From a bacterium (GTDB lineage Bacteria > SAR324 > NAC60-12): DNA of 19,284 nucleotides. The DNA lies in the NCBI GenBank assembly GCA_965233585.1, contig CBDDTI010000502.1, positions 1-19,284 on the forward strand, given 5' to 3'. Position numbers and translations under genes: made by a program. Below the pieces are notes generated by a model. That model was not told the DNA's origin and did no database searches. It saw only the letters and a program-made list of their open reading frames with translations. Of this stretch, positions 10,998 to 11,584 are shown one piece after another. The stretch's first letter is position 1; each line of letters begins with the position of its first letter.

Positions 10998-11584
10998 ATC
11001 ACAATTTAATGGTACTTGAGCAAATCCAAATAAATAAAAATTTTGGAGTTAAACAAGTGCCAAAAAAGTATGAAGATTAGATGTTAACATTTTCGGTGTG
11101 AAGTAGTTGCTCACAATTTTGTAACTTTTATGTGGATTCAAATATTAAAATTAAAGATTTAAATCGCGCACAAAAGTTAAAAAAGCGTAAGACGTTGATC
11201 TTGATGATGAAATGTGATGAAGGTTGACTGTGATTTAACGATGTTTATGCTAAATAATTGCTCACAATTTAATTACTCTTGTGGCGAGTGTCATATATGA
11301 TAAAACATTATGAGACTCGTACAAGAGTAAAAAAAGCATGAGATGATAAGCAGTGTCCGGATTTTAGAGTTGAGTAATAGCTCACAATTTTAATGCCAAA
11401 TGTGACAGGTCAAATTTAATTAAAGAATTTAGACCTGCACACATTTGTCAAAAAAGCATGAGAAATAAAGATGGTCTTCGGAGTTATCTTGAGTGTAGTA
11501 AAAACTCACAATTTTAAAATAAATGTGAGAGATAAATTATAATTAAAAAATTTTAACCCCTCACATTTATCAAAAAACTATGAG
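10998..11584. repeat. Array of five ~80-nt imperfect hairpins with conserved flanks (CTCACAATTT...AAAAAAGCATGAG) and variable stems
   Basis: Units start at 10998, 11110, 11261, 11381 and 11505; each internal segment is self-complementary. Confidence 0.85.

Follow-up and report, generated by a model that had tools for sequence, protein, structure and literature searches.

MicroRNA (miRNA) clusters are encoded by herpesviruses, some other DNA viruses and a few retroviruses. The homologous regions (hr) of baculoviruses consist of repeated units of ~70-80 bp with imperfect palindromes, which are near-identical to each other and scattered round the genome. Mavericks/Polintons are widespread in animal genomes and stand between transposons and viruses. 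For bovine leukemia virus (BLV), an excerpt of one study describes 10 mature miRNAs in a compact cluster (PMC9340297), which we read as five hairpins, and an excerpt of another states that RNA polymerase III transcribes each BLV hairpin singly, using internal promoters of type 2 (PMC12498455). According to sections of Roden et al. (2017, PMC5340965) on the substrates of Microprocessor, the stem of primary miRNAs (pri-miRNAs) is optimal at 36 +/- 3 nt, their terminal loop measures about 8-16 nt, and the CNNC motif is enriched 3-11 nt from the stem base, with a peak at 5-6 nt, in mammalian hairpins. No report of miRNAs or hairpin arrays in Mavericks, Polintons or adintoviruses was found among the text excerpts returned by a full-text literature search.

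Here, we describe an array of five hairpins within about 600 nt in the right part of a Maverick/Polinton. The window, that is, the whole stretch of DNA that was analysed, is 19,284 nt long. Since the five hairpins are built like miRNA precursors, the element is predicted to make small regulatory RNAs of its own, and probably does so. We propose that polymerase II transcribes the array from the minus strand as a polycistronic cluster of pri-miRNA-like hairpins, which would be encoded by an animal Maverick/Polinton and processed by the host Microprocessor and Dicer, and we give this reading a probability of roughly 0.6. The transcription, processing and targets of the hairpins are what we infer from the DNA. 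RNA polymerase II would read inward from the region beside the right terminal repeat, along the minus strand. The host Microprocessor (Drosha/Pasha) would recognise the hairpins with arms of ~36 nt, helped by the CNNC past the base, and would cut about 11-13 nt up the constant lower stem, and Dicer would free ~22-nt duplexes from the variable upper stem. Through this upper-stem processing by Dicer, each unit is proposed to yield a different small RNA from the same scaffold.

In several respects the array resembles the polymerase-II miRNA clusters of herpesviruses and the miRNA clusters of animals, with several ~80-nt hairpins lying 110-150 nt apart on one strand of a non-coding stretch in the genome of a DNA virus or virus-like element. 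In addition, its arm length and CNNC flank match the rules for Microprocessor substrates in the sections cited above (PMC5340965). It differs from the viral and animal clusters in that the carrier is a Maverick/Polinton, that one lower-stem sequence is found in all units, and that its expression is a prediction. The BLV cluster is the closest in layout, being compact and carried by an integrated virus. However, when the 20 hairpin types of the element families described below are considered, T4 runs are present within the hairpin in 20/20 types and within 12 nt after it in only 2/20, and transcription by polymerase III is therefore unlikely here.

The carrier element

Positions 1 to about 12727 of the window are the right part of a ~23.9-kb Maverick/Polinton, located in DNA of animal type that ended up in the bin of a bacterium. 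This assignment follows from the capsid gene, the rve integrase gene, and the ends and lengths of the sister copies. The window, which is not bacterial itself, is a whole contig (C502) of a 12-Mb assembly that is filed as a bacterium and in which bacterial 16S/rRNA is found on large contigs. In C502 and dozens of other contigs, the DNA is of animal type and includes Mavericks, Bel/Pao retrotransposons and a gene for a rhabdovirus-like glycoprotein. Because bacterial 16S and animal-type contigs occur together, the bin is mixed; nonetheless, its GC distribution is unimodal at about 40%. The main genes of the element in the window are as follows.

4238 to 5587, minus strand: major capsid protein with double jelly-roll fold, 449 aa (model pLDDT 84.9; Foldseek)
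5540 to 6962, plus strand: adjacent TBP-like and TFIIB-like gene pair (PF00352, 60.7 bits; PF08271, Zn ribbon, 33 bits), kept in element families A to D
7379 to 8461, plus strand: rve integrase (PF00665, 37.7 bits, cut-off 32.6) with a weak chromodomain match (Chromo, 22.3 bits, below the cut-off of 25.1)

The capsid model matched the capsids of an iridovirus (SGIV), PBCV-1, Sputnik and mavirus in Foldseek, with E from 1e-15 to 1e-11 and a probability of 1.0; a structure model built from the single sequence had a pLDDT of 30.6 and was not used. The named sequence homologs of the capsid are animal proteins only, metagenomes contain capsid homologs of 60-88% identity, no capsid relatives were found in the public viral contig collection, and Pfam gave no match on nine capsid homologs. 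The window also encodes C2H2 zinc-finger proteins and contains weak sub-threshold matches to Pox_A32 (19.3 bits, cut-off 22.8) and Peptidase_C5 (adenain; 16.6 bits, cut-off 21.3), while PDB sequence searches with two ORFs returned no match.

The protein-primed polymerase B was recognised in a sister copy on contig C523 as one 129-aa piece (PF03175, 26.2 bits versus a cut-off of 25.8), with neighbouring pieces in other frames. In this copy, which is otherwise 99% identical to the window, the polymerase B region (positions 1554-5047, minus strand, of locus L012, that is, C523:23000-42000) is split over several frames, and another piece of it carries an endonuclease VII domain. On its flanks, the copy has Bel/Pao retrotransposon genes and a gene for a rhabdovirus-like glycoprotein. 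At 14329-18894 of the same locus, a 1521-aa ORF matches the Monjiviricetes fusion glycoprotein family with 148 bits, which suggests an endogenous glycoprotein gene of viral origin.

Terminal inverted repeats and a length of 15-25 kb were taken as the marks of a Maverick/Polinton, and both are present. For example, the complete copy on contig C579 (496-24382) measures 23.9 kb and has 580-bp ends that are 96.2% identical, and that on C593 (23438-47120) measures 23.7 kb and has 224-bp ends that are 100% identical. Many element copies are 97-100% identical. If the hairpins are processed, a germline-integrated and recently active element would thus be feeding small RNAs into the host miRNA pathway, which would bear on the persistence, competition and taming of such elements. 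The array, along with the TBP and TFIIB genes that the element carries, suggests that gene expression in this lineage is programmed more elaborately than a 24-kb element would lead one to expect.

Outside the Maverick, the window contains two direct repeats of 362 bp (12952-13313 and 16462-16823), which are 94% identical and 3.5 kb apart. A reverse-transcriptase ORF (RVT_1, 76 bits) starts at 16832, beside the second repeat, and the repeats and this ORF may belong to another retroelement.

The hairpin array and its surroundings

The five units are listed below with their minimum free energies (MFE, in kcal/mol).

10998 to 11074, minus strand: hairpin unit 1, 77 nt; MFE -19.7, z -4.66, 0/200 shuffles as stable; matched by the R1 model (see below) with 77.2 bits
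11110 to 11191, minus strand: hairpin unit 2, 82 nt; MFE -24.2, z -6.85; minus -24.2 versus plus -14.9
11261 to 11342, minus strand: hairpin unit 3, 82 nt; MFE -30.6, z -7.61; plus strand slightly better (-31.8), one of two exceptions among the 20 types
11381 to 11462, minus strand: hairpin unit 4, 82 nt; MFE -26.7, z -5.76; CNNC starting 9 nt past the stem base
11505 to 11584, minus strand: hairpin unit 5, 80 nt; MFE -30.2, z -9.40; minus -30.2 versus plus -12.9; lacking in the element copy on contig C592

The original prediction, made from the letters of the sequence, had described five hairpins of ~77, 82, 82, 82 and 80 nt at 10998-11584, and both the sizes and the positions are as claimed. 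From one unit start to the next, the distances are 112, 151, 120 and 124 nt. Read on the plus strand, the 5' end is CTCACAATTT in units 2-5 and GATCACAATTT in unit 1, while the 3' ends are variants of AAAAAAGCATGAG in all units (AAAAAAGTATGAA in unit 1, AAAAAAGCGTAAG in unit 2 and AAAAAACTATGAG in unit 5). Each unit forms a single stem-loop, with minus-strand z from -4.66 to -9.40 and none of 200 dinucleotide shuffles as stable. Folding of both strands had been proposed as a check, and the whole array is stable on either of them, with z of -8.94 on the plus strand and -7.75 on the minus strand (0/20 shuffles each). A lower stem of ~13 nt is common to the five units, and the upper arms differ with their pairing kept.

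The array originated by tandem duplication of units, for which TRF reports a period of 122 with 79% match over units 4-5. The interval 11003-11688 is not crossed by any ORF of at least 80 aa, and this, as well as the unit spacing of 112-151 nt, is consistent with a cluster. Rfam 15 gave no match in the window at the gathering threshold; against the Rfam miRNA families, the best match of the units was sub-threshold (26.8 bits versus a threshold of 118), and only generic hairpin matches were obtained. No tRNA was found in the window. Two further identities were considered and rejected: the unit ends are unlike the core sites of integron attC, and copies of a MITE would have a common internal sequence, which the array units do not have.

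The array is located between two small ORFs and the repeat-rich right terminal region, 1.1-1.7 kb from the element end. Its neighbours are the following.

10225 to 10937, minus strand: two small ORFs (134 aa and 103 aa) that closely follow the array on the putative RNA strand; no Pfam family
11797 to 11808, minus strand, with a second copy at 12243-12254: conserved block AAGAAAGGTTCT, upstream of the array on the putative RNA strand; only these two matches in the window
11892 to 12529, both orientations: 32-bp tandem repeats with a palindromic core (TRF rows 11892-12057, 12255-12384 and 12389-12529)
12061 to 12096, no strand assigned: truncated duplicate of unit 5 that retains the loop and a single arm
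12160 to 12727, no strand assigned: right terminal inverted repeat with approximate ends; 12186-12725 matches C579:1077-501 inverted

The partial sixth copy noticed earlier near 12061-12096 is real, since 37 of its 40 aligned columns are identical to the loop and one arm of unit 5. The sequence downstream of it is duplicated too, and the copy is a truncated segmental duplicate, because the partner arm is missing. The copy number of the 32-bp tandem repeats differs among element copies.

Upstream of the array, a block of ~230 bp is duplicated at 76% (11640-12015 and 12108-12408), with AAGAAAGGTTCT in each duplicate. A similar block of ~30 nt around AAGAAAGGTTCT is present upstream of the array in family B, and the AAGAAAGGTTCT block is a possible candidate for the promoter region. 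Another candidate promoter, TTAAAGAAA, was rejected: it has one exact minus-strand match, at 12249-12257 upstream of the array, and its count with no more than one mismatch is at chance (31 versus 28.3 expected). The regions upstream of the arrays in families A, B and D have no 9-mers in common.

Strand and precursor-like anatomy

The two strands of each hairpin were folded separately. For the 14 types of families A and B, the minus strand is more stable in 12, with a mean difference of -5.5 kcal/mol (Wilcoxon p 0.003), and G.U pairs number 42 on the minus strand versus 17 on the plus strand. The equivalent of the window minus strand is more stable in all six types of family D as well, which makes 18/20 types overall, these types being partly paralogs within arrays and not fully independent. 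The palindrome at C435:29026-29101, for which the other strand is better (-39.3 versus -33.5), was left out of the count as part of a terminal repeat. Among orthologs, single transitions that lead to G.U number 20 for the minus strand versus 10 for the plus strand, a bias of only 2:1. The sequence favours the window minus strand as the RNA strand of the array.

Drosha cuts roughly 11 bp above the stem base. The constant lower stem of ~13 nt would end about where this cut is expected, leaving ~22 nt of variable stem. Over the 20 types, the arms have medians of 36.5 and 35.5 nt and form 25-38 bp. The 5' arm measures 33-39 nt in 12/20 types (3/5 in family A, 9/9 in family B and 0/6 in family D), the rule being mammalian and the host invertebrate-like; the arms of family D are longer, at 30-48 nt with none within 33-39 nt. 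The MFE loop is 8-16 nt in 11/20 types.

The position of the CNNC motif is strand-specific. Its first C lies 3-11 nt past the base in 17/20 types on the minus strand and in 4/20 on the opposite strand (background 0.27, binomial 1e-7), by a rule that comes from mammalian hairpins. At the peak distance of 5-6 nt, the motif is found in 9/20 types versus 0/20 (background 0.076, binomial 7e-6). In the 5' flank on the proposed RNA strand, CNNC is present in 5/20 types.

Then, could the units act as DNA instead? They would be inverted repeats that form cruciforms beside one terminal repeat and provide a signal for packaging or replication, and their CTCACAATTT / AAATTGTGAG-like ends would be inverted protein sites. 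Adenovirus packaging repeats, which adjoin the left ITR, offer an analogy. The subterminal position of the array at one end only, 1.1-1.7 kb from the terminus, the constant sequence at the base of each unit, and the A32-like ATPase candidate and zinc-finger proteins encoded by the element are all in line with such a signal. However, recognition of double-stranded DNA needs no pairing of the variable arms, and neither the preference for folding on one strand (18/20 types; G.U 42 versus 17) nor the strand-specific CNNC at a fixed distance is predicted; in addition, the family C elements have no array. We consider a DNA-level role quite unlikely.

The same structural and strand evidence that supports the miRNA reading would also support minus-strand structured RNAs of another kind, namely decoys for sensors of double-stranded RNA or for Dicer, binding sites for an element protein, or cleavage/attenuation signals for the two downstream small ORFs. 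Adenovirus VA RNAs, for example, soak up host double-stranded-RNA sensors and Dicer. The array lies directly upstream of the ORFs at 10937-10225, on the same strand, and the conservation of the lower stem (83-88%) beside near-random flanks suggests a sequence-specific reader. However, the two ORFs are kept in families A and B (67-100% and 43-100% identity) and have no match in families C and D, so that family D has the array but not the ORFs. VA-type polymerase III transcripts are unlikely in view of the T4 runs noted above, and the CNNC enrichment at 3-11 nt and the ~36-nt arms would be left unexplained. Consequently, we regard structured RNAs other than miRNA precursors as an unlikely explanation.

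As for what had been proposed at the outset, a viral pri-miRNA cassette was named there beside palindromic enhancers or origins like the baculovirus hr. The former gains support from the virus-like Maverick carrier, the precursor-like arm length, the favoured strand and the CNNC on that strand at the expected distance. The latter was rejected. The array is like the hr in having repeated palindromic units of ~70-80 bp in the genome of a DNA virus; however, its units do not share their arms (58-59% identical versus 52% for random sequence), there is a single array per element copy, and the carrier, with its double jelly-roll capsid and rve integrase, is not a baculovirus.

Conservation and occurrence among Maverick lineages

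Among the five paralogous units, identity is 83-88% in the lower stem, 58-59% in the upper arms and 60-62% in spacers, loops and flanks, against 52% for random 22-mers. Between the window and the copy on contig C224, divergence is 10% in the lower stem, 20% in the upper stem, 33% in the loop and 31% in the spacer. In an alignment of 24 units from six arrays, 8/18 consensus pairs are still paired through changes on both sides. Orthologs were compared in 11 arrays with 10 distinct rows, where pairing is kept in 97.5% of 1513 cells, versus only 33-45% in slid controls. The claim that the arms differ between units yet stay paired is therefore borne out by both paralogs and orthologs. Co-variation is also seen among element copies: five pairs show double changes among the orthologous arrays, versus 1.0 +/- 1.0 in shuffles (1/500 as high). 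Constraint thus acts on the sequence of the lower stem and on arm pairing, because only these stand out, the arms being near random in sequence and yet paired.

The original prediction went further, in that the structure would be under selection while the payload diversifies. Its first part agrees with the constraint on lower stem and pairing, but the arms are no more diverged than the spacers (58-59% versus 60-62%), and a change of the arms faster than neutral is not shown. Variable columns are similarly frequent in the 5p and 3p arms in all five units, which is uninformative on arm asymmetry. Canonical Microprocessor recognition has, to our knowledge, no need for such a constraint on the lower-stem sequence. 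Another sequence-specific reader is possible, because the lower stem is 83-88% identical among units while the spacers are near random.

In a tentative extension of the miRNA reading, the array may be a modular guide cassette, in which a constant, Microprocessor-licensed scaffold would carry ~22-nt arms that turn over between lineages and silence host defence genes or rival Mavericks. We regard this as possible but less likely than not. A search of the ten arms for near-perfect targets by blastn-short against the 12-Mb partial assembly returned, outside the arrays, no more than matches of 16-21 nt at chance level, a result that speaks against the miRNA reading as a whole. If the cassette reading is true, small RNAs would for the first time be seen as the weapon of a Polinton-type virus-transposon, and the engineered multiplex shRNA-mir vectors would have a natural counterpart. 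The constant scaffold and the CNNC flank offer a directly testable natural case of many guides in one scaffold.

For the search of further arrays, a covariance model (R1) was built from 24 units and applied with a cut-off of E <= 0.01 to 150 of 20,280 first-look candidates. Among the candidates scored, at least 89 matches were found in the 12-Mb assembly, all in Maverick copies, on 18 contigs, with one site per element copy and one strand relative to the element. The lineages compare as follows.

Family A, the window and 9 further arrays including C224 (88%): 5 hairpins
Family A, the C592 copy (84%): 4 hairpins
Family B (80% DNA identity), C112 and others: 9 hairpins
Family D (capsid 52% identical), adjoining its own terminal repeat: 6 hairpins, same strand
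Family C, C401 and others: no scaffolded hairpins, just terminal palindromic repeats (R1 search among the candidates scored, and inspection)

The arrays of 4, 5, 9 and 6 hairpins are thus located at the same element position and on the same strand across lineages. The array is also present, with the same variants as in the assembly copies, in contigs of unrecorded library type from two studies.

These comparisons bear on whether the array is a functionless palindromic tandem repeat, whose arms would be kept complementary by template-switch (quasi-palindrome) correction at replication and not by selection. Hairpins born by template switching, among them new miRNA precursors, are likewise fold-backs of 70-90 nt with arms made complementary by one mutational event; the array units differ from them in having a constant scaffold and flank motif, which are kept across diverged element lineages. 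The tandem-duplication origin, the truncated copy nearby, the drift of the arms as far as that of the spacers, and the count of just five double changes among orthologs would all fit a repeat without function. However, mutational correction does not explain the conservation of the lower stem, nor the fact that, among orthologs, stems diverge less than loops and spacers, nor the one-strand biases in G.U pairs and CNNC, nor the retention of the array at the same place in lineages with capsids only 52% identical. We therefore consider this explanation very unlikely. The CNNC enrichment is explained by none of the three rivals, that is, neither by a functionless repeat nor by a DNA-level signal or structured RNAs of another kind.

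Beyond the assembly, the scaffold pattern had no match in the public viral and metagenome contig collections and three matches in the public genome contig collection, none of which folds as a hairpin (z +0.57, -1.30 and +0.86). Two of these three (L027 5001-5083 and L028 160-242), from unrelated bacterial MAGs, share a similar sequence of ~80 nt, which may be a conserved bacterial element unrelated to the array. In 80 metagenome Maverick loci with capsid genes 25-31% identical (528,852 bases), R1 had no match at E <= 1. An RNALfold scan of these 80 loci reported 'arrays' almost everywhere, the three control contigs included (2567 hairpins in total), and is therefore non-discriminating. Within the assembly, a family C Maverick at C435:28930-30700 is truncated at 28932 and abuts the end of an array-bearing family D Maverick, a junction that could represent a nested or adjacent insertion.
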